A stretch of 64,000 nt of DNA. Origin: Lingula anatina. Taxonomy: Eukaryota; Animalia; Brachiopoda. The position numbers and the translations under genes are program-made. Below are positions 2,698 to 62,329 of this stretch, in pieces. The stretch spans positions 27,552,503 through 27,616,502 of the forward strand of contig CM120640.1 in the NCBI GenBank assembly GCA_051362555.1. Direction: 5' to 3'. Under the pieces are notes generated by a model. That model was not told where the DNA came from, did not search any database, and saw only the letters and a program-made list of their open reading frames with translations. Each line of letters begins with the position of its first letter. The first letter of the stretch is position 1.

Positions 2698-3806
2698 TTA
2701 ATAATCTTCCTGTGCTTTACAAGTGGGAATCAATTTCTCCATTCTTGGTTTTACTTTCTCTTTCACTTCTTTCACTCTTTCTAAGTTCATTTTTAGTTTG
2801 TGTTCTTTCTTTTCTAATTCATGGAGTGTTTCTGGAGCAAAAAGAGTTCTTATAACATAATCTATGCCCCTGTTAGTCTCGGGTATACGGGATTTGCACC
2901 TGCCAAATAAATAACTTTCAGATCCTAGTTTAGAAAACCTTGCTGATACCCAGTGACTGCGGTCTATTTGGGTCTTCTGTGACACTTCTTCGTCTTCCTT
3001 GTATACAACTTTTTCAACAACATCCTACAAAAAATAAATAAATAAATAAAATAAAAATAAATAAATAAATAAATAAATAAAAATAATCACTTTAAGTTTA
3101 GTACAGAATGGTCTATGACAATAACTTATGGAGTACTCAACACACTTACAAGCAAATAAGTTGTTCTGTATGAGCCTTTTTTATAACATTTTCAAAATAC
3201 ACAATGCCGATATGACGTTAATCATAACTTGAGTAAACCTTAAGATACTTTGATCAACTGACTTACTGCATAAGTAAGCATGTCTACATTTCTTGTGTAA
3301 GTGGTGCATTTTCTTGTTTCAAGATCCACCTCCGATTCCTCCAGCACAAAACAGGTGTCCTTGCCTCGAGTAGCCCAGTGCACAACCCCACGCAGGAATG
3401 AAGGGATAGATTTTAGTTGGACCTTTTTTATAAGCTTCTTGGAATAGAGTTTACCATTCTTGATTTCCCTGTGAATTACATCTTCAGAAAGTATGTGTGG
3501 GCTAAAAAAAATAATTAAAAAGTTCTACAGAAATAATTACGTGACAAACATAATTTTATGACTTCTTTTCTAATACAATATTCCTACAAACAATAATGTC
3601 ACACATACTGTGTCTAAACTTAAAAAAAAATCACTGCCAGCAGTTCTAGTTAGACCTAAGCCTCTCAGTCTAGCTATCTAGAGCTTTATCGATTAAGCTG
3701 TACTCTAGAAGTCTTACCTATAAGGATTTGGATACTTTTTCAATACTGCGGTCACAACCTGGTCCCACCGAAAGGAAAATGTTCCAAAGTCTTTTCCGAA
3801 CTTCAT
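2698..3806 (-). CDS. PRELID1: PRELI-domain mitochondrial intermembrane lipid-transfer protein, PRELID1/Ups1-like (~216 aa)
   Basis: Exons 3806-3718, 3501-3267 and 3024-2698 splice in frame: MKFGKDFGTFSFRWDQVVTAVLKKYPNPYSPHILSEDVIHREIKNGKLYSKKLI...CFVLEESEVDLETRKCTTYTRNV...VVEKVVY. WDQV..YPNPYS..H.L.ED is the PRELI signature. A likely non-coding first exon ends at 5739 (GTAAGT donor). Confidence 0.88.
3031..3085. repeat. (AAAT)n microsatellite
   Basis: Direct reading; it forms the polypyrimidine tract of the last PRELID1 intron on the minus strand. Confidence 0.9.
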
Positions 3807-12034: not shown

Positions 12035-35273
<23,239 letters not shown>

Positions 35274-44368: not shown

Positions 44369-47152
44369 ATGTTCAGTCTGTATGTGGTGTTAGCAGCTGG
44401 GTTAGTGACGGTGGCCATTGGTCAGGCTAACCCAGACAGGTGGAGCCCTAGTGACTACCCAAACCCAAGGATGCCCAACAGTGGCTCATACAGCTGTCTA
44501 CGGAAACAAAAGAAGTCCTATATCTGTGATCCAAATACTCTTATTTCATTTGAGGATGGTAAATAATGTTTTTATCACTTGTAAAATCAGATGTTATTTG
44601 CTATGATATCATTTGCTCAATTCAATTGATAAATTATTTAGATACCTTATACTGTTCTCATTTTATCACACAAGGCATGCTTTTTTAAAATTGAATAGAT
44701 TGAATGGTGCTGCAGTTTATTGAAAGAAAAACAGCTGAGAAAAACATATAATGATGAAGTAATCATTATCACATTATATGCATGTGTTACAGGGTCATTT
44801 TTTCCAAAACTATACTAGTAATGATGTTTGTTCATGAATTCCATCATAGTCCATGGCTACATCTGCAACTTCTGTTTAAATATGCACATATACAGTAAAC
44901 TTATTTCTTATAGCCAACATGTTGGACAAAGACTTGGAGCGGATAGCAAACAATAGCCGCTGCCTGTGTTCTGCCAGTGAGTGCAATAGGAGACAGCAGA
45001 ATAAGGAACCCAGGGGAACAAGGATGGCTGTTGCTTTGATGCAGGAAATGAAAAGAGAAGTAGAGTGAGTAAAGTACTTTTTTTTCTTCTTTCATAACTT
45101 TTTAAGCAATTTTTTTAAACATTTTGGTCAAAAAATATAAGTTGTTATTATAAGCACATTTTTCACATGAGCAGAGAAAAGTCAAATTTAACATTCACAA
45201 AGTTTCAGATCCTATGTTATTGGTAATGTACGGACATTTGAAAATGAAGAACCTGTATTATATGGGGCCTGAAAAATTTTTATATGAAATCCAAGGACAT
45301 AAAAATTTATGCATTTATGCTAAAGAAACTTATGGTTTGTCACCTACTTCCAGTGGCGAGGATTCTGATGAAAAACGTATTGGGGATGCACAGTCATTTG
45401 CTCACCGACTTTATCCCAACTGGAACTTAGGAGGAGAGTGCCACGATGTTGTACTGTTAATTTATTCTAAGCATGAGAATGTAGTAAGTACACATACTTT
45501 GTTTATCAGTTGATTTATTTTTCAAAATGTTAAATTTAGATGGTTGAGTGAATATTATAGAAATGAACATATCAACTCAGAAGAATGGAAAACTTTTTGT
45601 TATAGAATCTTAGTTAGAATGTTATAAATGTTAACAACATTAAGTTGGGTGTTATGCTCATTTTCACTTACTAGTACTATAATCCAGCCTCACTTCTTTA
45701 ATAATTAATTCCTTTGAGTTTAATTTGTGTTTATTCATCTAGATCAAAGTGTAAAACAATGTTAAAAAGGCAATCTAAGATAAAGCTATTTGAGGCAAGT
45801 TTCTCAGAAAAATTAGGTAGCATAAAGTATAGAAAGCACTGACATTTATGGGTTGGTTTCAGTTGTATGTTGCCACTGGTCCAGCAGCTAGTCAAGTTGT
45901 CAGCAATATGGATCTGAACAGAATCTTGGCTGACTCACGACAATATTTCTCCAGTGGCAATGATGAAAACAGCAGAAGAAAACTTAAAGAGGGACTTCAA
46001 AGACTGATAAATGATTTCAAGTAAGCATACATTGGCTTTTTATATGAAACAACATATAAATGTTCGCTTTTTTATCTATTGCATTTTTCTTTTTGTTTTT
46101 ATTCAAAGGAATCAACATTCAAATGCTGTTGCATGTTTAGATAAAGAGGTTGCCTTTTTTGGGGGGTGAGGCGCTTTGCTTGTCAGCATTGTTTCACTTG
46201 CCAACACTGGTAAGATTTCTTTTCAGACATGTTTTTGATGAAAAATTAAATATAGCAAGAAAACCACCTTAAGACACACTTCGTTATTTTATCTTATGCT
46301 GGGTTGCTTAGGTCTTGTTTAATCACCCTTACAGAAAAGTTCCATGTTAATTTCAGCTGACTACAGCAGCAAATGCATTAAGGCACAATTTTGTTGTGCA
46401 GCACTGCCCCTTCTTTCCATTAAATATATAATTTTTTTTTTATCCCACAGCAGAAATAAGGTCATCATTTGAGAGATTTTACTTGCAAATTAATATAAAT
46501 AATGAAAAGGAGATGGCTGTCAAAGCATTGTTTTCCTTCGCATTGCAGGACTGCTTTCATTCGTGGCCAGTATATTCCACGCAAATGGCATGGGGGGAGA
46601 TCAGAGTACAGCCCAGGGTCAGCTGGCCAGTCGGGCAGAAGATCGTCTGCTTTCATGAATACTTTCAGTGGATTGTTAACAATGACAGCTCTTTTCATTT
46701 CCTTCCTTGTGATTTACTAAATTTGTTGCAAGTGAATACAAATTCAAGCGCCAGCTGGTCTATAGCTTTTACTGCTCTGCCAAAGTTTACGGGTCTATCG
46801 GTGGTTCCAAGGCATGGCCCTATTACCGTACCAAAGATACCACAAAAGTCTGTTGACGGTGCTACAGTTTATACCAAAGCAACCCAGCATTGAAAAAAAT
46901 GTTACAAATGCTCTTTTTCAAAATCTGAGAGACATTAAAATAATTCTAGTCTTTGTATTTAATGAGAATTATGTAATTTAAAGTAAATTATATGTTTTTG
47001 CCTTTGACTCTTGCAGAGAGCATTTAACCGGACAAAAAACAAATATCGAATACAGAATTGAAGCTCAGAAATCCAGTGGAAAGAGAAACACAGTACAGCC
47101 AATAATCTTGATGACTCTTGCCATAAGCTTCTTACTGCAGATATTCAAGTAA
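44369..47152 (+). CDS. MOLO-1/TPM-like secreted protein with signal peptide and C-terminal GPI-signal-like tail
   Basis: Exons 44369-44558, 44914-45064, 45354-45483 and 45863-46020, then 46549-46720 or 47017-47152. Signal peptide MFSLYVVLAAGLVTVAIG. W...YPNP...C....SYICDP..L, MAVALM and FA..L...W.LG..C...VLL are typical of the MOLO1 family. Confidence 0.8.
46549..46720 (+). CDS. Alternative terminal exon A of the MOLO1-like gene
   Basis: Acceptor TTTTCCTTCGCATTGCAG, phase 2. Encodes TAFIRGQ...SGRRSSAFMNTFSGLLTMTALFISFLVIY*. Confidence 0.65.
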
Positions 47153-47972: not shown

Positions 47973-50100
47973 TCAAACTGCAGTATCTCTTTCTGATTTC
48001 TTTCTGTTAAGTACAGGAAAAGAAGTGCTTGTAGACGGCCGCGATACAAGTAAACTGTCCAATGCCGTTTCCTCCTCGACATTTCTTTCAGTGTGTGTAA
48101 TTCCATGTAGAACTGCAAGAGTAGGCAAGCTTTTGTACTGAAGTCCCGTATCACCTTCATTGGTAATTTCATCACGACAAGTGGCCACAATTTCTGTCAA
48201 TTAGAAAAAAAGAATTGCTGTGATCTTTTTTTATGCAAAAAAAGGCTATAAAAATATCAAAGCCATTATTTGGACAAAACAAACAGCCACATTCAAAATA
48301 GCAAAGGCCCGAAAGACTACCATATCACAAAGCACCTATACCAGGAGTACAAAGAAAATTTTGAAGGTAATATACTTCAGATCTAAAAGTAAGGACATTG
48401 AAACATATTCCAGGTAGTGTACTACAGTCGCAAATAGAAGAGCAGAAAGGTTAAATAAAAAATCAATACCTACAATAATCACATCACAGAAACTCATGCA
48501 GAGAAGGTCTCTGTAATGTTTTTAATCTTCATGTTGAGTTACAATATTTTAAATAGATGATCTTCAAATGTAAAAAAATCGCACGTTACAAATTTTAACT
48601 TACCCATTTCCAATGTACATAGATCAGCTGCCCTCAAGTTCTCTAAAGACAGTGGGGAATTTAGGAGATGTCTGTTCATCATGAAAAGCTTACTTGCAAT
48701 ATCTCTCCCAATCACATTCTCAAATATGGCACTGAGGAATGGCTCCTTTGATAGAGCATTTTTGATCCTGCTCTTGGACCAGCGAATGTAGCGACAGTCC
48801 TCCAAAGCCACTATAGTCACCTGAATAATAGGTATTCATATCTTCATCTACATAAGTTAGAAAATTTGTTTTCCATTACTTTTGAGATGATTAATTTGAA
48901 AGGGGTTTAATGAATTTCATTCTTGCAATAATGGTACATGTTTCCCCTTTTTCATTGTACATACTTCAACCAAATAAATACTTTTATCACTACTTACCGG
49001 TATCTACCAGTATCAGTTTCTAAATGAGCTACTGCATGCTGTAATATTAATACTGTGTAGATATATGGTTAAAATTATAAGTAACTGAGACTATGTTATT
49101 CTCCAACTAGCACAAACAGAGCACAACAAAATTTAGTCAAGTTCATACACTAGTAGAAAGTTTTTCACCCTGTGTACACATAATGAAATATAAGTAAGAG
49201 GAACATAATAGTGAATGAATTTTCATGCAACCAAGTACCTTAAAGCAATCATGCTCAGTGAAAGACACATACTCAGGAGAGTCAAGGAACTGAAATTCAC
49301 TGATTTCATGAGCAAACTTGCCTGTTATTGATACTGACATTCTGAAACAAGAAAGTGAGGAAGTATAGAGAAAAGGCATTTACTTAAGTTAACAGTGCTG
49401 ATTTTATTGCCTTCTGAATCTGGGTGGCATACCAGTATGTAATTATACAATACTATAAATAAACAATTACAATTAGTACCCAGTTTGAAAAAAAAAAGAT
49501 TTTTCTCAAATTTAAATGCCATCAAAAATGCACTTGCCTCCCAGAGATGAGGAGAGACAATCCACTAGTTTTAGTTGACCCTTCTGTGGCAAATAGTTCC
49601 CCTTTATTTACACTGAATATGCCATCATGGAGATCCACTGCTTTTTTGAAAAGATGCCTTGGAACTTTCAGGGGTTTAAATAACTGCTCATACATCAATT
49701 CAATCTCTGGTGGAAAAGAAAGTGGTCTAAGGTGATAGATAATGAGCACTGCTTGTACAAAGTTGATTATAGCTAAGAAAAAGTTCCATAGGAAAGTGTC
49801 AAAAGCACACAGCACGTCCCATCCCCAAACTGAAAAAAATATTGACGCTATGCAAAGAACAGTCCTCAAGAACAACAAGCCATATATTCCATTTGGCGCC
49901 AAGTAGGAAAGTAGAAGGCAAACGTTGGCCATTTGAAAGTACACATGATTTGGTGGCAGCCATTCACAACCCATCCAAGAAGTCGTGGAGATATTGTCAA
50001 GTAGAGATTCATTGGATACTGCCCCCATTATGACATAGCTTGATGGATCTGTTGTGTTTTCAAAGCTTATCTTCATTGTGGCGAGATTCTGCGTGGGCAT
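47973..50100 (-). CDS. BVES: Popeye domain-containing cAMP effector (BVES/POPDC family)
   Basis: Exons 50100-49538, 49341-49239, 48820-48604 and 48193-47973. N-glycosylated N-terminus, three TM helices (HVYFQMAN..LLSYLAP; WGW..CAFDTFLWN), Popeye domain with FLDSPE and FKVT motifs, and DIASKLF. Confidence 0.92.
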
Positions 50101-51885: not shown

Positions 51886-53184
51886 TTAATTTTGGTACAT
51901 TTCGCTTATTTGTTTTTTTTTTTTTTTTTTTTTTTTTTTTTGATGAAATTTATTAAAAAGAAGGATTTAAGTCACTAACGTAAATGCTTTTCACCAGTTA
52001 TAAAATTGATATGCATGCTTTACCTCTCAACTCACATCTGATTTATTCTTATTTCTGCACCTCGATCTTTAGGTGTGTTTATAATATTTTTACATCATCA
52101 AGAAAACCAAGTCAAAACACATCAAAGCCAAACAAACAACGATTTGAAGTCGTTAAAAGAACCCTAGCCAGAATCCGAATAGGCCTAACGATTATCTTGG
52201 GCGGTTTTTTTTTTTTACTCTGAAAGTTCTTTGATCCGAACATCTAGTGAAACGAGGCCTTTTAATTCCGAAAAGCTTTCTCCTAGAAGGCCATTTGCTC
52301 TTAATTTTTATCGCTGATAGAAACCTTATCTTTGAATAAGCAGCTACATATACGCCAGTAGCCATGTTTGGGTGTGACATATGAATAAGGCGTGGTCCTT
52401 CACTCCTAAATATCACCCTTGTTATAGACCTATAGAAAATAATGCAAAAGAGTTATGCACGCTTCATACTGACAAAAATGAACGAAAAAGATATGTATCA
52501 GTGGGAATCGTCTAAATGCTATTAAGGATATGTAAACGGTTTTTATATTCTCGATTTAGCATCAAACGGTCATGAACAGGCAAAAGTTTTCTTATCAAAG
52601 TGAATTCAGGTCATGTTCAGGCGACAGTTATTCCATTTTTTCTTATAAGTTGGTTAATACGAAAGCGAGCCTTAATGTAATTTTTATAAGCCCTTATTAA
52701 TCTAATCCTTTTTGCGGAATTGTCAAAATCATTATAACTTTAAAGTGGCATCCGTTCTCCCTTATATTTTATGGGATAATTTCGATAAGAACCAATTATT
52801 ATAGAGACACTGGAACTGGGACATTAACCTTGTTTTGCAATGTCAGCTAGTGAAATAGGACACTACTCGACATTTGTTATGCATGGTGGCCGTTAATATC
52901 CAATATTGTAAGTAAACACTTTTTCTCTTTATTCCTGTCGAGGATTCATAGCGTGCGCGGTGCCTCGTTTGTTAAAACGTCCATTGGGCAGTCTTCGTTG
53001 TCCTTTGACTCCCAACCGTGACGGAGACAAGCTAAGAGGGAAAACGTAGTGCATACAGTCACATGACTGATATATATTTATGAGTGAATACATATATATG
53101 TGTATTGCGCCTCTAGTGTACCGTCTGAAGTGGCACCGGGGACATAAGTACAATAATTGAAGCAAACTTAAGAAATTTACAGCG

Positions 53185-56100
53185 ATGGAGACGACCATTC
53201 CTGCACCCCACGAAGTTTACTTTGGCCCCCCTTACGGAAGCCACGAGCAGTGGCAAAACAGAGCATACAACATTGTCGAGGAACACTTAGGAAAGGAAGA
53301 TTTCGAGAGAAGATTAGCCAAACAGTTTCAGGTATTTTGTTTTTTACAAGATTTAGGTTAGGTGAGGTCTGTAACATTTTTACCGCGAATAGTACCGTGA
53401 ATTGTACTCTTGAAGCACCTGTGCTTTATTTAAGAAATATCATATATCGTATGCACTGAGGTTTGACAGGTTCATGCTGGCGGTTGATGCCATAAGTATA
53501 TGCCTTCCTCCGTGCTGAGATTATTATTTGTCATTATTCTTGTTGTCAAGCTTAACACGTGTAGTTTTTTTAAATGTAATTATGTGTTTGGCTTTGCACA
53601 CTTTTGTCGCGAGGCAGTTGGGTACGTCGTATAGTTGTCTTTTGTCACAGTGGATATGTTCACTGCAATAAGAACAGGTTTTGCTTGATGTAGGCCTACC
53701 TTTGCAACATCAATGCTTCATTTACTAGTCGACCCAGGCGACATTCAGTGCACGCAGGCATTCGATACACATATACAAATTTAACAAAAAAAATCCAGCC
53801 AAGTATAAAGAACCATTTCGAGCTTTTCATAAGATTATAAGATACACTATTACAAATAGATAACAAGATGCCGAGGTCACTGCCTCCATAGAATTCTTTC
53901 CTCTGACATTTCAAGAATTATTAGAACGTGTCCTCTAGGTCAGCTAAGCAAATTTCACCAGCTTCTGTTTGTTCATCTGCCTTGTAACCTTGACAGTCAT
54001 GGCGAGAAGATCATATATCGCATTTGCAGCAATTTCCCTTTAAACAATGATGCATAATGAACATAAAGAGATGTATTATAGTATTGAAAATATCAATTTA
54101 CTGCATATCATAAGGCCGTCTATATGCCTATTATGGAAAATCGAGTGCTGTAAATAAGAGGAGTATATAGTCTGATCAAATACAAATCGGAAATTAAACC
54201 TAAATCCACATTGCAGTAAGCAGGGCCCGCATTAGCTTTATTTGAAGTCTCGTGAATATTTCACGATGACATCAGACGATAGGCCAAAAGTTTACGTTCT
54301 ATCATGGCCATGCTGAAAATGATCAAATTTATGAACAAGAAATGTAACGTAAATGACAGATGTAGGCCCATTAGAAAGTTTTTTTTTTTTTTTAAATTAT
54401 GAAGGCCTTTACAAAGCACGTTGAAGGTCAGTGCATGTACCATGCATGCAAGTAATTTACTTTGTAATTACTTTATAAAGTAATTTGCAAAATGTACCTG
54501 CCTTTTCACTTGAAATATGTTTTAAACCCCATCTAAAACTTGCCCCCTGTGCCATAAGGTTCTGTTGTACCTATTCACTTTTTGTTTTTAATATTAACAG
54601 AAAACAAAGCACAAGTTTTCTTCTGTTTATATATTACAATATGAATAATATATATATAAATAAAATTGTAGGACGGTTACAATACTCCGACTTGGTTGAG
54701 CGGTTTGAAGTTGTCATGGAAGTCTACCAAGATCAGGAACCTTTTTGGTCTAGATTCCATAAAGGGGAACGGATCATTCACCTATCATTCTAGCGTTGGA
54801 GGAGCGGGGTTCGCTGTTTTATCCGAGGTAAAAATCTGTGTGTTATGGAACTAAAACTCATTCTTTCCAAGGAATATCGAAAACAATTTAGCAACGTTAT
54901 TTAAATTATTTCTAATGAAAAAACTAGTTTACATTTTTCTTTTTTTTTCCTTTCTACTACACAAAGAATCTCAATATACCAGAAAACGATTTCTTCAAAC
55001 CGGGAAAAGTGTTCCCCATACGCATGCGCCATGCAAATCTGTTCACAGACGACGATGCAAGTTGCGACTTTCGCTTGGCAAGTTTGAAGTTTGCTGATGA
55101 GGACGGCGGAGGGCCTCTTGATTTGATTTTCTCAACAGGTCGAATGCCTTTATTCTACAACTTGGCCGAATTAGAAAAGCTGGACGGAGCTCTAGGAAAA
55201 CAAGAGGACGGGTTTAGGAAATGGTTGTTTGAGCGTCCCATCAAGTGAGTTGATGCTAGATATCACTATACTTATCTTTTTTTCTGACGCTTTTTGGCGG
55301 TTTTTCATCACTTCGATATTATATCGTTTAGGGTAGATATATCGCCTTTCTGCTATATAGATTATCACAGAGTTATAAAAACATTTTGCTACTTCTATGA
55401 TATTTATATTTTTTGAAATAATGCGGATCATTTTGCTCGTAAATTAGCATTTTTTATTTCACTTGATTTTCCTTGTGTGTTTGTGTGTGTGTGTGTGTGT
55501 GTGTCAGACTTTGTTTCAAGTGCCCATACCGTACACTTCTCCTGTCATTTTTTTTTTCATGTGCGTTATATACTTTCGTGTACTCCGTATCTTTCGCATG
55601 CAGTTATTGGGCAGCTGTGGACGGTATGAGACGCGCACCGACTTCATATTCATCCCAGGTTTATTACAACCACTTCACCTATCACATGACGTTTTCTGAC
55701 GAAAGCACCGAATTGGTTCGGTTTCGACTGGTTCCCGCCGCGGATGTTTCAGAAAGTGGGCTTCTTAACGAACAGCAGCAAAAGCAAGCTTGGTAAGGTC
55801 GAATATTTCGATATTTAATCTATCGGCTTCACTCTTGTTAAAAATGTGAAATGTTATTATTTCAAACCATGTCCACCTACCTAAAACACCATAGGCTACA
55901 ATGACCCGTTCATCATTTCACAAATTTGAATTTATCTTGAAATAAGAACATGGAATTATAATAAAAGACTAATGATTTTGTTGGTTGATGTATCTTCTAA
56001 TTTGACGTTATCAAAATCATATTTTCAGCAAGCGTGATAAAAAAATCTTTAACCCCGAAGCCAAATCGATGATTTTAAAACCACTTTTCACCATTTCGAA

Positions 56101-59100
56101 ACAAATAAAAATTGCTTTTCATAATTCCCATGATTCATTTTATTGAACATTGTATATTCAGGGTCAGAGAAAGACATTCAGATATTGGTAATCGTGAGAG
56201 CTACCTGAGTGAGGAATACGAGTCTCAGGTTGAGAAGCACGGTGCTGTGAGGTGGATTCTACAGGTAGTGGTCTAAACTTTTAATTCACAAACTAAGGAG
56301 AAGGCCCACAACTTGACATTCTGAAACATTCTGTATTATATGCAAAGATTTCGGCTCAGCTGATAATTACCTTGTACGTGCAACTGAAAGAAAATGAATG
56401 TGGCAAAATTTGCATAATGAAGCTGTTCAGTAGTTGGCTGTTCAGTTATAATATTGCTCAAGTAAAGTGATAACTGCATGTGATCTGCCTTTCAATTAAG
56501 AAGATTTAAGGTATACACTTATCTACTTGTAAGCAATGATTTAAGCTGGCCGTCATTCAGTCACCCACAACTCTCAATATGTGTACAGGTACAGCTACAT
56601 GATGTGACCGAGCTTTCCGGCTACAACCCATGTGAGCTATGGGACCCCGTAACCCATCCATGGCGCAATGTGGCGGACGTCTTTGTAACAGGAATTCTCC
56701 CTGCTCAATTCACCGACAAGATGGACTTCAACATAGACAACAGGCCCGATATCCTCTCATTTCCTGAGGCGAAATCTGTTTTTGATTTCAAGTCCGCCAA
56801 CAAAGCACTTCAAATTATGTATGAATGTCACCAGACACGGATGCAGCGTCGACAAGTTCTTCAAGACCCTGAGGAGAAAGTTTCCTCTTACGTTATCACG
56901 TTGGAGTCGGGACAACAGAGCCGTTCCGGTACCCTTTCGTCAGTACAGGTAACACTGCAAGGTACGTATGGTATAAAGACACCCTTTGCGCCATTGTAAA
57001 TATATCATCTCAGGCATATTGCAGGGCCGAGTCGAATCGGTACGCCAAGTTTTTTAAAGCGGTGCCCAGCCCGTAGTTGCTTACAAAAAGCTTCCCTTTC
57101 CAGGTAAAACCAGACGCACAGGCCGACACACACTCAGCAACGTTTACCTGACGTCAGGACTTCATGTGCACCTTGTCAAAGACCGGTCGATAGGCAACTT
57201 GATTGCAATACAAGTTGACATCCGTCATCGGTTGTCCAGTGATTGGTACCTCAACCGACTTTTAGTGACTTGCTTGGAAAGGAACGAAACTTACGTTTTT
57301 CCTTGCTTTGCTTGGTTCACTGACGATAACAAAACCATGGTTCTAAGACCAGATCCGGCAGGTAAGGTATATCTTTTAAGAATACACTAATATCACGTAG
57401 AAAGATACACACACACACACACTGACAGTATACAAGTACTCTTCATCAAGATGCGATAAAGAACCATGTGGCCCCTGAACCATTGGCAACCATTGAATTT
57501 CATTTTGGGTTAATATTGGTGTTTTCATGAAATTTTCTCTTTTTTAGTGTCTCTGCCTCAGATGGAACAATACACCAAGCTTGCGGTAGTGCGCAAGTGG
57601 GAGCTTCAGAAGAAGAAAGAGCAGTATCGCTGGGCAGATTCAAAGACCGTGGTCAAAACTCAGGTGGGAAATCTAATGTCAATATTGCATGACTTCTAAA
57701 TGTATTAGTTGGAAGAAACATATTTTTTAATTGTTGTTATTATTCTCATGACAACTACGTTACCTTTGCCAGTTTTTTCGTGGGAAAGAAGGAAGAAGCT
57801 GCAAAGAATACGAATGTGTTCTTTGCGGTAAAGAAAAGCGACATTTATCCTATTGGAAATGGTGGAGGGATATATGAATGACATAAAAAGTTTACTTTAA
57901 TCAAGTTTATGTCGCTCAGGTTGAAGGGCACAATGAAGACAACCTCCCAGGGCGGATCGCTGTGAAAGAAATGAAACATCTACCTAGAGATGCCCAAATA
58001 CCTGAGGAACGCATAAAACACTTCTGGCACAACCTGAACGCTGGGTTCCTCAACCTCCAACTGGGGCGCCTGGCATCTCTGATTAGTGAATGGAAGCACA
58101 CTGACGACTTTAAAACCATGGTGAATAGGCTTTTGGAGAAGACCGATACCATGGACTATGTTATGGAGCATTGGACTGAAGATAAAGAATTTGGGCGGCA
58201 GATGTTGGATGGAACGTATCCAACCCTCATTCGTCGGTTGGCAAGTCTTCCACCTAACTTCGTTGTGCCAGATGACGCTCTTGTTGGTGTACTTGATAGG
58301 GGACGCACTTTGGGAGAAGAAATCCAGGTGAAATGTTAATTGGGTCACGATTGTACTTATCACATACACAGTTGATGTTTCGTTTAAGAAAGAAAGTTAA
58401 AACTGAGATGTCAGTATGTTTACAAAATACTAAAACTCAAAGCAATACTCGTTTCTATAAGTTTTCAAACTTACACAATTTATATTTCATCCAGGAAGGG
58501 ACTATCTTCATGGTGGAGTATCCAGACCTGCAAACAGTGCTGCGTTATCCAGACCGTTACGTAGCAGAAGCCACCTGCCTCCTGTACGTACGCTCTGACG
58601 GAGCTTTGGTTCCAATCGCAATACGTCTTATACAGTCCTCCGACAGCCATGAGCAGATTTGGACCCCTAACGACAGCCCGATGGACTGGCTGTGTGCCAA
58701 AATTTGGGTGAAGTGCGCCCACTACCAGTACCATCAAATTGTTGGCAGGATGATGTGCAGGTTAATGTTGGAACCAATTGCGGTGGCACTGAACCGTTGC
58801 TTGTCTGTGGCTCACCCCGTGTATCAGCTACTGCAGTCCCATCTTAAGACCGCCATTGGAATCAATGTGATGGATCGCCAGGTCTTTGGAGCGGGGTACA
58901 ATGAATTTCTAGCAATTGCTGCCGGGGGACACATCGCCCTGTTGAAGAAAACCTACAAGAAATTCACCTTCAAGATTTTGAACCTGCCGCTGGATCTGGA
59001 GACCCGTGGTGTTGACGACCCAGCAGCTCTACCCAATTATCACTACCGCGACGATGCCTTGGCCCTCTGGCAGGTAATCCGGCAGTTTGTAGAAAAGATG

Positions 59101-59951
59101 ATCTCACTTTTCTACCACTGCGACTCAGACGTCGCTGGGGATGAAGAAATCCAAGCTTGGATCGACGAATGCCATTCTAAGGGATTCCTCAACTGGGAAG
59201 AGAACATCGACCACGGGTTTCCAGACAAGATCAGTAGCTTGGAAGGGTTATCTGAGATACTGACCAGTGTGATCTTTACGGCAACTGGTCAGTACGCAGC
59301 TCTCAATTATTCACAGTATGATTACAATACGTTTGCTCCCAATATGCCTTCCACAATGAACAGACCACCACCTAAAGAAAAGGGTGTCGTCACCATGAAG
59401 TCGATCGTAGAAATGTTGCCAACCAGACGACAGACCGCGTTCTCCATTGCTGTTGCGTACGCGATGTCTCGGCACGAAGGGGGCGAAGTGAGTGTCAATC
59501 GTCTACTGGTACCAATTCGTGTGATCGTTTATAATAAAACGAAAGTAGCTGTTTTTAACGGTGTAGATATTGCATGACGATGGCTAATCATAAATTGATA
59601 AGACTCAAAATTACGTTTTATTAGCTCAATGTTGACGAAAACATAAATGAAGATTCCTTCACGTCCAGACTTATTACCTTTTACACGTAATTGGCCTTAT
59701 TCCCCATATTTTTAAACAACAGTTACAATTTTTGTGTTTATGATTGTTTTTTTTTCTTCTTAAAATACTAGGTGCTGCTTGGGAATTATCCAGAGTACAG
59801 TTTCACCGAGCCTGGGCCGAGAAAGGCAGTGGACAATTTCCAGGGGGATTTGAAGAAGTTATCCAGTGCTATTCATGTACGCAACAGAAAACTTGCGGTT
59901 CCGTATCGCACTCTCTTGCCTGAGAAAATCCCCCATTTCATTGCCATATGA
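53185..59951 (+). CDS. Allene oxide synthase-lipoxygenase fusion homologue (catalase-like AOS + PLAT + LOX, 1066 aa) with catalytic residues substituted
   Basis: 11 exons: 53185-53331, 54672-54827, 54967-55244, 55604-55792, 56162-56264, 56589-56961, 57104-57361, 57548-57663, 57920-58327, 58495-59487 and 59772-59951 (3201 nt, no stops). AOS motifs: FPIRMRHANL, SLKFAD..GPLD, MRRAP and LWD..THPW. PLAT motifs: DWYL and FPCFAW. LOX motifs: W.EDKEFGRQ.L.G, PIAI.L, WLCAK.WV, LPNYHYRDDAL, and C-terminal IAI. Confidence 0.93.
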
Positions 59952-62329
59952 TGAGTCTAAGGCCGTTTTGTATAACTTCATACTCGGAGCCCCGAGGTTT
60001 CATGAGGTTTAAGAGGCGGTTCTCCTCCTTATTCTTCCCAACGTCACTTTAATGACCTAGCGCACGTGATGTGTGTGACAGTTCAGAATGAGCAAGATAA
60101 ATACACAGATTCCAACGCTCCAACTACACTTTATCAAGTTTAGATGCCTAGTACTGGAACTTTTTTAACCTACGGTGATACGAATGATATTCAAGGGTTT
60201 CAAAAACCCACGTCAGCAAGTTTATACAACTTTGCTCAATATATTTTGTATATTTATATGGCGAAGGGTTTGTAAAAGTAGCAGCAGTAGCGGGGAAGGT
60301 GCACATGCTTTTAGCTTTTAGGGGACTGGTGATGGTTTTTTTCATCCTTTTAAGTCTGTTCGAGGGAGACCTACTTTTCCTTTTAAATAGAGAAAATACC
60401 AGCCCCTGCCAAAATAATGTCTACTAAGTGCGCCACAATAAAAAAATCCAATGTGTAAAAAAGCAATTATTTACTGGTCAATAGGGTGATGGTTTAAGTA
60501 GCGAGTAATTGTTAAATAATTCTTGAAAATGTGTTTGTACCAAACTGTATCCTACCGAAGACATTTCAAACTTACTGTATTAAGTTTTGCTTTTTATTTG
60601 CTTCTACAAAACATTATACAGCATTATGCTGCAGCAATAAACAAATTGTACAACATGCAGTACGTTCTCTATAACCACATGAACTATGCTAACTTCACTT
60701 TTTTTTATACAAAATTGAAACTGAGACAGATATTGACGATGAAATAACTGTTGCTTTGAACAATAAGTGTATCATTAATATAAAGTGATATACGTCTTCC
60801 AGTGCCTTTCTCCACATTCTACATTAAGCTACCTATTCAACATGGCACATTTAAGGTAAAGCTCACAGAGCTTGCCATTATGTAAATGCTTTTTATAACT
60901 TCATATGTACAACTACACAAGTGAACTACAATATCAGCAACAAGTGAGCTTTTTATATTATTTTACAATGTATGTATTATTCATCAGATGATTAAAAACA
61001 AGATGATTCAAATCTTTTAACTCTTGTGTTATTCTATAACAATTGCTGCAAATTTGTCAGTGTGAAAATTCACCCAAAGAGATGTTTATATTGCTTTTAA
61101 ATGTTCTTTATTCTCCACCACTGACTTTCACGTGCATTTAAATTATCTATATACAATATTGTCAGAAAATACTCATATATTTAAAAAAATGAAAATCTGT
61201 GAACACATTCTTCTACAAAATTATGAAGCTTGTTAATATACTCCCTGCGAATCAAATAATCATGTTACACAAACACCAGAAATAACTTACATTCAATGCA
61301 AGCATAATTATTTGGTAAATTCACCTCTTAATTACAGTTTCATTCTGAAAAGATGACATTTACAGCTTGAAAAGGTGTGATAAAAACCTAGCAAGATCAG
61401 AGAATTGCTTTAACCTATTAATGTTACATGCACATTTACGAACAGACAATAAAAAATTATATCTTGTTTATGTTTTTTTTAACACTTATTCATCATATGT
61501 ATTAGTCTTAAGGCTGTAAACATGGTGAAGAACTTTTCAGCAAATCAAGTGTTTAAAAATGTGCTGACATTTAAGGCAAATCTAGATTAGGATTACAGAA
61601 GTACAGGCCACTTTTCATTTTTACCACCAAAGAATTTTAGTAAACCATATGTAATGATCACAATTTTTATGAGCATGTTATGACAGCACAGGTCAGCAAA
61701 TGCATACTCACCGAAATAATTGTTTCTACTGCTCATCTTATTTAAAATTATACCTGACAAACCTGAAGTATCTAAATTAGCTTTTTCTTGTGTCTTAAGT
61801 TCCAGTGTTATGCTGGTCTGTGTTGTTGTTTTTACCATATAAGAGCATGCCTGTAGTATTATATGTTTCAAAACTTCTATTCATACCTGAGAAAAGCACA
61901 TGGCTGCCATCAAGCACCATTCAGCAATTTAAAATGATAGAAGTCTGAATCTTAGACCTCAGTTCTTTACAGTTCAAAAATTACAAAGCTGATCCTAAGA
62001 GTTTACAATTCAATTCATCCTGTCTTAAAACAATTTACAAACCTTGTAAACATAATTTTCATGGAGATCAATGCCCATATCCACATTTGCAGTGCCATGG
62101 GCACCTTATCAAAGCAATAACAAAGTGTATATAATATATATATTCATACTAAAAATTATAATAAACAATAACAAAAATTTAACCTTATGTATCATCTTTC
62201 TTCCTTCTTGTATATTGAACCATAATAAATATATAATCAGGCATTAAGTGAGGCAGATGTTCTATCTACAAAATTCCATGCAATAGAACACCCAATTCAC
62301 AAGAATAAGTTTGAAATAAATATGTAAAT

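Follow-up and report, generated by a model that had tools for sequence, protein, structure and literature searches.

A conserved Lingula anatina allene oxide synthase–lipoxygenase fusion gene whose product probably lacks both parental activities

A 64,000-nucleotide stretch of the Lingula anatina genome (Brachiopoda; assembly GCA_051362555.1, contig CM120640.1, forward-strand positions 27,552,503 to 27,616,502; hereafter the window, numbered from its first letter) contains a gene that encodes a catalase-fold allene oxide synthase (AOS), a PLAT domain and a lipoxygenase (LOX) in one chain and in that order, which places it by descent in the family of catalase-related AOS-LOX (cAOS-LOX) fusions. 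The gene is expressed and under purifying selection, its product is predicted to keep the fold of all three domains, and catalytic residues have been lost from both centres, the combination expected of a pseudoenzyme. We conclude that the Lingula fusion is a conserved AOS-LOX member in which both activities have probably been lost, as judged from its sequence.

Gene structure, transcription and selection

The fusion gene occupies 53185..59951 on the plus strand, where 11 coding exons join 3201 nt into 1066 amino acids and a stop codon. All 10 introns run from GT to AG, and each of the 10 exon joints was seen in raw RNA reads, so that the intact, canonically spliced frame described by the sequence-only reading was borne out at the level of transcripts. 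Exon 1 (53185..53331, residues 1–49) opens with an ATG preceded by an in-frame stop 9 codons upstream and encodes no hydrophobic signal stretch. A hydrophobicity scan gave values below 0 in the first 40 windows and a best value of 1.4 anywhere in the protein; we therefore infer that it is cytosolic. The coding part of exon 11 (59772..59951) ends with the C-terminal Ile1066 and TGA, and the transcript runs on to at least 60400.

Expression was assessed from reads and contigs of RNA runs mapped to 52900-60400. Run X12 contributed 311 reads (from ~6% of the run), X18 309 (from ~25%) and X15 18, and run X5 a single spliced contig of 4002 nt; the joints were recovered in X12 and/or X18 and again in the X5 contig. 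Sense-strand poly(A) reads also covered intron 1 (53402-54656) in X12, at a depth of ~2–12, with none in X18 or X15. This coverage may reflect retention or an internal start; a transcript of this kind would use Met121, where a 946-residue RefSeq model begins. At position 53700, four opposite-strand X12 reads share a loose end, which may mark an insertion allele or a further copy of a repeat.

The top database match was L. anatina XP_013388118.1, named allene oxide synthase-lipoxygenase protein, which differs from the window protein at 6 of 1066 residues. The model starting at Met121 (XP_013385825.1, 946 aa) differs at 8 residues and an older 1066-residue entry at 10. The two near-identical RefSeq models sit on separate scaffolds, and the three entries may be alleles or recent duplicates. 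A match in the ESM Atlas gave the family name only, and tblastn detected no second LOX-like copy in the window. The gene is already annotated, but as an enzyme.

To compare haplotypes, we aligned 58642-59340 with a diverged contig (X10). The 28 differences over 233 LOX codons comprised 21 synonymous and 7 nonsynonymous changes, giving a proportion of synonymous differences (pS) of 0.134 and a nonsynonymous-to-synonymous rate ratio (dN/dS) of 0.088 (binomial p ~5e-9), an estimate drawn from one exon counted in full, at shallow divergence, by the simple Nei-Gojobori method without transition correction. At least 11 further variants among those listed in X18/X19 reads divided into 9 synonymous and 2 nonsynonymous. 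Outside 58642-59340, 30 coding rows (among 40 of the 223 variant rows) gave 22.5 synonymous against 7.5 nonsynonymous changes, 10.5 and 4.5 of which, respectively, fell in the AOS part, and no coding indel was listed among the mapped reads.

Where the LOX ligands are encoded, neither the reads nor the contig from the diverged haplotypes carried a histidine. Variation at R765 and Y943 was exclusively synonymous, and no variant was listed at the R761, D803 or N947 codons; this check of catalytic residues covers the LOX codons. Because both haplotypes lack the LOX ligands, the purifying selection dates from after their loss. We conclude that the gene is under purifying selection, as demonstrated for the LOX exon. 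Neither frame disruption nor neutral evolution, the marks of a pseudogene, was found, in agreement with the earlier proposal of selection rather than decay.

The catalytic centres and the predicted fold

LOX positions were read from a pairwise alignment with the coral AOS-LOX (3dy5) and from a 145-row multiple alignment (144 homologues plus the query). The LOX domain begins in exon 9 (57920..58327) and its core lies in exon 10 (58495..59487). There the three iron histidines that are fixed in active LOX are replaced: H757 by R761 (codon 58747-58749), H762 by R765 (58759-58761) and H943 by Y943 (59293-59295). Histidine occupies these columns in 133, 138 and 136 of the 144 homologues, near-universal frequencies that argue against chance loss. 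R765 was matched to H762 by the register counted back from the conserved Glu769; the span from 761 to that glutamate has 9 residues where 139 of the 144 homologues have 10, leaving one residue missing between the first two ligand positions, where active LOX have a five-residue spacing with a helix break. The fourth ligand (Asn/His/Ser; N947), the carboxylate of the C-terminal Ile1066 and the non-ligand histidines H756, H783 and H792 are all retained. At the Coffa site, a Gly/Ala stereo-switch, G800 is replaced by D803 (58873-58875); Asp occurs there in none of the 144 homologues and Ala or Gly in 119.

Conservation reaches 85% or more in 68 columns; the query agrees with the consensus in 60 of these, and the iron ligands account for three of its eight changes; the median homologue, among 114 well-covered rows, differs at 5. 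In this alignment the ligand loss is selective. Both ligand-replacing arginines are encoded by AGG which, if descended from His codons, would lie at least two further silent changes away from the His-derived CGY. A 2026 review (PMC13059375) gives three fixed histidines and the terminal carboxylate as common to all LOX. By alignment, the Lingula LOX centre is wholly stripped of its ligand histidines, and the domain in all likelihood binds no iron and performs no dioxygenation, its LOX activity having been lost.

The AOS centre is less completely altered. In exon 2 (54672..54827, residues 50–101), the distal H67 is replaced by Y87 (54783-54785) in the pairwise and both multiple alignments, with a histidine next to it at position 88; R64 has become S84, and T66 is kept as T86. 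Exon 3 (54967..55244) carries S157 (55132-55134) in place of the distal N137 and F127 in place of K107, and keeps R102 as R122. The catalase-fold domain continues through exons 4 (55604..55792) and 5 (56162..56264) to the proximal helix in exon 6 (56589..56961), where R349 is replaced by L365 (56808-56810) and R360 by M376, while the proximal haem ligand Y353 is kept as Y369 (56820-56822). Two of the three haem-coordinating arginines have thus been lost, or three of four when Arg349 is added to Arg64, Arg102 and Arg360. PMC5617202 lists R64, R102, R360, H67, T66, N137 and Y353, with R64 and R360 as haem-coordinating, and PMC5793058 (Lohelaid et al. 2018) adds R349 as catalytically important.

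On this comparison the AOS centre is partly stripped, and allene oxide synthase activity has likely been lost; because the proximal haem tyrosine is kept, the AOS half is less certainly dead than the LOX half. Every substitution listed by the sequence-only reading (LOX ligands, AOS distal pair, proximal arginine and Coffa site, together with the PLAT acids described below) was recovered. Its broader claim that both centres are dismantled holds in full for LOX, which has none of its ligand histidines, and in part for AOS, which retains Y369, T86 and R122.

The PLAT domain begins in exon 6 and is carried mainly by exon 7 (57104..57361), with the PLAT-LOX junction in exon 8 (57548..57663). Its loop is shortened and without the acids present there in the LOX of coral and fish, and the acidic loops of calcium-activated LOX PLAT domains are lacking: the domain has 8 acidic residues, compared with 11–19 in 14 homologues, and a net charge of +5. 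The lost acids are presumably calcium-binding residues, and the PLAT domain would then no longer respond to calcium.

An AlphaFold2 model of the RefSeq protein, computed with 31 homologues, reached a mean predicted local distance difference test score (pLDDT) of 86.7 and a predicted template modelling score (pTM) of 0.86. It superposed on 8R-LOX (3fg1) with Z 49.0 and an rmsd (root-mean-square deviation) of 1.9 Å over 661 residues, a second structure comparison agreeing for the LOX part, and on cAOS (1u5u) with Z 46.4 and an rmsd of 2.0 Å over 354 residues. All three domains are thus predicted to keep their parent folds, in line with the conserved fold motifs noted in the sequence-only reading. 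The helix at 738-778, which includes H752 and C764, is unbroken in the model; in the one control folded, an intact LOX (P0003), the helix breaks at 406-407, between the second histidine, His404, and the conserved Glu408. The one-residue deletion is therefore predicted to remove the helix break between the two former histidine ligands. We take this break to be the pi-bulge, and read the unbroken helix as a putative loss of the element that positions the iron ligands.

Relatives, history of ligand loss and neighbouring genes

Three protein searches and one of 50% cluster representatives, with limited sensitivity and with clusters that can hide orthologues, returned no relative between ~44% and ~98% identity and no close orthologue outside Lingula. 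The named matches of the protein searches included no other Lingula LOX; most of the 150 cluster-representative matches carried no name. Run X11 (organism B) yielded no mapped contig, a result that carries no weight. Over the LOX columns, identity to the nearest relative found does not exceed 42%, which means that the gene did not arise by recent copying of any of the active genes found.

Among the 141 rows with letters at all three ligand columns, the query included, 11 lack at least one histidine and 3 lack all three. Named cases come from Nematostella, Branchiostoma, Ciona, Clavelina, Tubulanus and Styela (the last with uncertain alignment), and one to three ligand histidines are absent from P0095, P0100, P0115, P0181, P0142, P0143 and P0168, which include tunicate and nemertean LOX. 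Since databases name such ligand-less proteins as enzymes, the capacity of invertebrate genomes to make oxylipins is likely overcounted.

Some relatives are full fusions altered in both centres. In Nematostella vectensis XP_048590066.1 (P0242), the LOX ligands read R,H,F and the AOS distal His, Arg349 and Tyr353 are lost. Both centres are also altered in three Branchiostoma paralogues (XP_035691859.1, XP_035681464.1 and XP_035693140.1) and their orthologues, in which the LOX ligands read H,H,R; N,Q,Y; and L or Y,H,N, and the proximal Tyr is absent from all three. These doubly altered amphioxus paralogues (P0054, P0056, P0061) are 89–97% identical between species, and amphioxus also has relatives with intact LOX ligands beside them. 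The N,Q,Y lineage (P0056) carries the same one-residue deletion and the same tyrosine at the third ligand as Lingula. Another Branchiostoma protein (P0064) has seemingly kept its AOS residues and has Arg at the third LOX ligand. Intact LOX ligands beside a degenerate AOS were seen in P0006, P0007, P0055, P0009, P0231, P0002, P0017 and P0022, among them sequences of freshwater mussels and Pocilloporidae.

We computed a quick LG+G4 tree from 50 of 61 aligned rows, dropping 11 near-duplicate, truncated or aberrant rows and excluding the ligand columns. Ligand loss required 10 state changes, at least 5 of them forced by starred branches, and a single origin of all ligand-less LOX was rejected. Across taxa, the replacements comprised R in 7, Y in 5 and N in 4 of 20 changes. 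Lingula grouped with sequences of nemerteans and bivalves in a position that carried no star, on an end branch of 0.64 (median 0.52). The sequence-only reading had raised the possibility that the substitutions define a clade. In approximately unbiased (AU) tests, for which groups were named after tree inspection and under a simpler model that rejects true clades more often, a clade of Lingula with the amphioxus N,Q,Y lineage was rejected (p-AU 0.0025) and one with Nematostella was not (p-AU 0.07). Repeated independent ligand loss appears the likelier history on this tree.

Elsewhere in the window, all on the minus strand, lie exons of a Popeye-domain (POPDC) gene (48539-50100), a PRELI-family exon (3240-3524) and exons encoding a FYVE-type zinc finger and a C2 domain (12425-31899). 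Long low-complexity exons (19353-21782 and 26939-27748) stand between the FYVE and C2 exons, and the set likely forms one synaptotagmin-like gene. On the plus strand, a weak MOLO1-like match (45154-45513; E 0.001) falls below the curated cut-off.

Possible functions and comparison with known systems

That a fusion with changes in both centres has been conserved suggests that the LOX fold can serve in a role other than catalysis. Among the possible jobs we put first the non-catalytic binding of lipids or oxylipins, ahead of regulation by protein contact, and regard it as about evenly poised between right and wrong. The product would be a metal-free pseudoenzyme that binds fatty acids, oxylipins or membranes without turnover. 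Arg761, Arg765 and Tyr943 would occupy the vacant metal site and would probably balance the charge of the buried carboxylate of Ile1066, and the protein might serve as a buffer, carrier or damper in an oxylipin pathway, which is the least certain step. A broader proposal, which we consider doubtful, is that marine invertebrates repeatedly turned AOS-LOX into a metal-free lipid receptor or carrier; in Lingula, Arg761, Arg765 and Tyr943 would then bind carboxylates at the base of what was the substrate channel, and the Lingula protein would belong with those of Nematostella and amphioxus to a class of pseudo-lipoxygenases, hitherto unrecognised, whose task is to sense oxylipin signals or damp them.

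Several observations weigh against a lipid-binding protein with both activities lost. A single mutational step turns a His codon into one for Arg, Tyr, Asn or Gln, and the recurrent arginine, matching this spectrum, does not by itself show selection for arginine and was not accepted as proof of charge compensation. In the pairwise alignment with the coral protein, the position of Arg182, the substrate-carboxylate arginine of 8R-LOX, is Leu579 (exon 9) and that of Ala589 is Ser962; the clamp residue Leu431 corresponds to Phe807 or Val806, the alignment being ambiguous there, and the lid segment has lost 3 residues relative to the coral protein. What Arg182, Leu431, Ala589 and the lid do in 8R-LOX is taken from PMC13059375. 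Canonical fatty-acid binding is therefore unsupported: with Leu at the Arg182 position, Asp at the Coffa site, an altered clamp and a shorter lid, the cavity may be closed or remodelled. Because the arachidonate-holding residues of 8R-LOX are replaced here, a ligand would have to bind in another way, if it bound at all. The AOS half may, for its part, still bind haem, given Y369, T86, R122 and the neighbouring H88, and one database allele carries T86A. The single-exon basis of the dN/dS estimate and the restriction of the haplotype check to LOX codons count on the same side.

An empty cavity would suit a scaffold or regulator acting by protein contact, which would pair with an active AOS-LOX or LOX or recruit partners through its PLAT and LOX surfaces. 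Selection has kept the three domains and their linker together, residues at the cavity entrance and lid are remodelled, and the dead amphioxus paralogues coexist with relatives whose ligands are intact; the missing partner, no other Lingula LOX having appeared among the named matches, speaks against it, and we see this as a possible but less probable job than lipid binding. The retained haem tyrosine raises a different option, in which the LOX half alone is dead and Tyr369 still anchors haem in AOS, Tyr87 or His88 possibly serving as the distal residue; the AOS half would then store haem, sense peroxide or convert, in an altered manner, hydroperoxides supplied by another LOX. T86 and R122 are also kept, H88 adjoins the distal site, N137 is reported as non-essential for catalysis in PMC5617202, and a close coral paralogue has changed its chemistry to that of a hydroperoxide lyase (HPL). 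Against these stand the tyrosine found at the distal His position in every alignment, the loss of R349, R64 and R360, the Phe at K107 and the T86A allele, and we consider this option unlikely.

Tyrosine and cysteine can ligate metals, and the LOX domain might bind one through a new set of ligands (Tyr943, Asn947, the Ile1066 carboxylate, Cys764, His752 or His756) that supports different chemistry. N947 and I1066 are indeed kept, and one helix carries both C764 and H752; two arginines at ligand positions would, however, be expected to repel a cation, and the helix break that positions ligands is absent from the model, which makes a new metal site very improbable. Even less credible is a decaying duplicate, or a pseudogene of recent origin, in which stops have yet to appear. 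The two RefSeq models on different scaffolds and the sense reads over intron 1 in X12 would fit such decay, but the low dN/dS separates haplotypes that both lack the LOX ligands, and no coding indels were listed in the reads. Non-catalytic binding of lipids or oxylipins accordingly keeps its place as the job put first.

Pseudoenzymes are common in other families, which tempers the surprise of finding one here. Literature searches outside subscription journals and supplements, which may describe such sequences (e.g. Figure S1 of PMC5793058), turned up no LOX or AOS-LOX pseudoenzyme, and the accessible parts of PMC13440314, PMC3925239 and PMC3026367 make no mention of inactive forms. The earlier remark that no description of such a protein was known stands to this extent; the protein itself is not unique, doubly altered fusions being present in Nematostella and Branchiostoma. 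These counterparts open the question to laboratory animals, Nematostella being genetically tractable.

Among the closest known systems is the AOS-8R-LOX of the coral Plexaura homomalla (PDB 3dy5, 1u5u, 3fg1, 4qwt), which has the same domain order and the same length of 1066 residues. The two proteins match with E 2e-183 over residues 23-1065, their folds are predicted to lie 1.9–2.0 Å apart, and T66, R102, Y353 and N947 are common to both, as are the Ile at the C-terminus and the histidines that are not ligands. Unlike the coral fusion, the Lingula protein has R/R/Y at H757/H762/H943 with one residue missing, an Asp at the Coffa site and no acidic PLAT loop, and H67, N137, R349, R64, R360 and K107 are all replaced. 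The HPL-LOX (AOS-LOXb) of Capnella imbricata is a repurposed paralogue of the same fusion, but it is active and keeps its catalytic residues, according to PMC3925239 and PMC5617202, whereas in Lingula those residues are lost.

Scattered changes are also known from stony corals. The accessible text of PMC5793058 describes loss of T66/H67 together with Y353L in one Orbicella fusion and, for two LOX sequences from Acropora, Lys or Tyr where the first LOX histidine would stand, with the LOX ligands kept in all predicted fusions; unlike the case of Lingula, it reports neither a fusion altered in both centres nor a selection test. The doubly altered proteins of Nematostella and Branchiostoma are, like that of Lingula, full fusions lacking one to three LOX histidines. 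They are ~34–35% identical to the Lingula protein and differ from it in their replacement residues, and they have lost the proximal haem tyrosine, with the distal histidine present or absent, whereas Lingula keeps that tyrosine.

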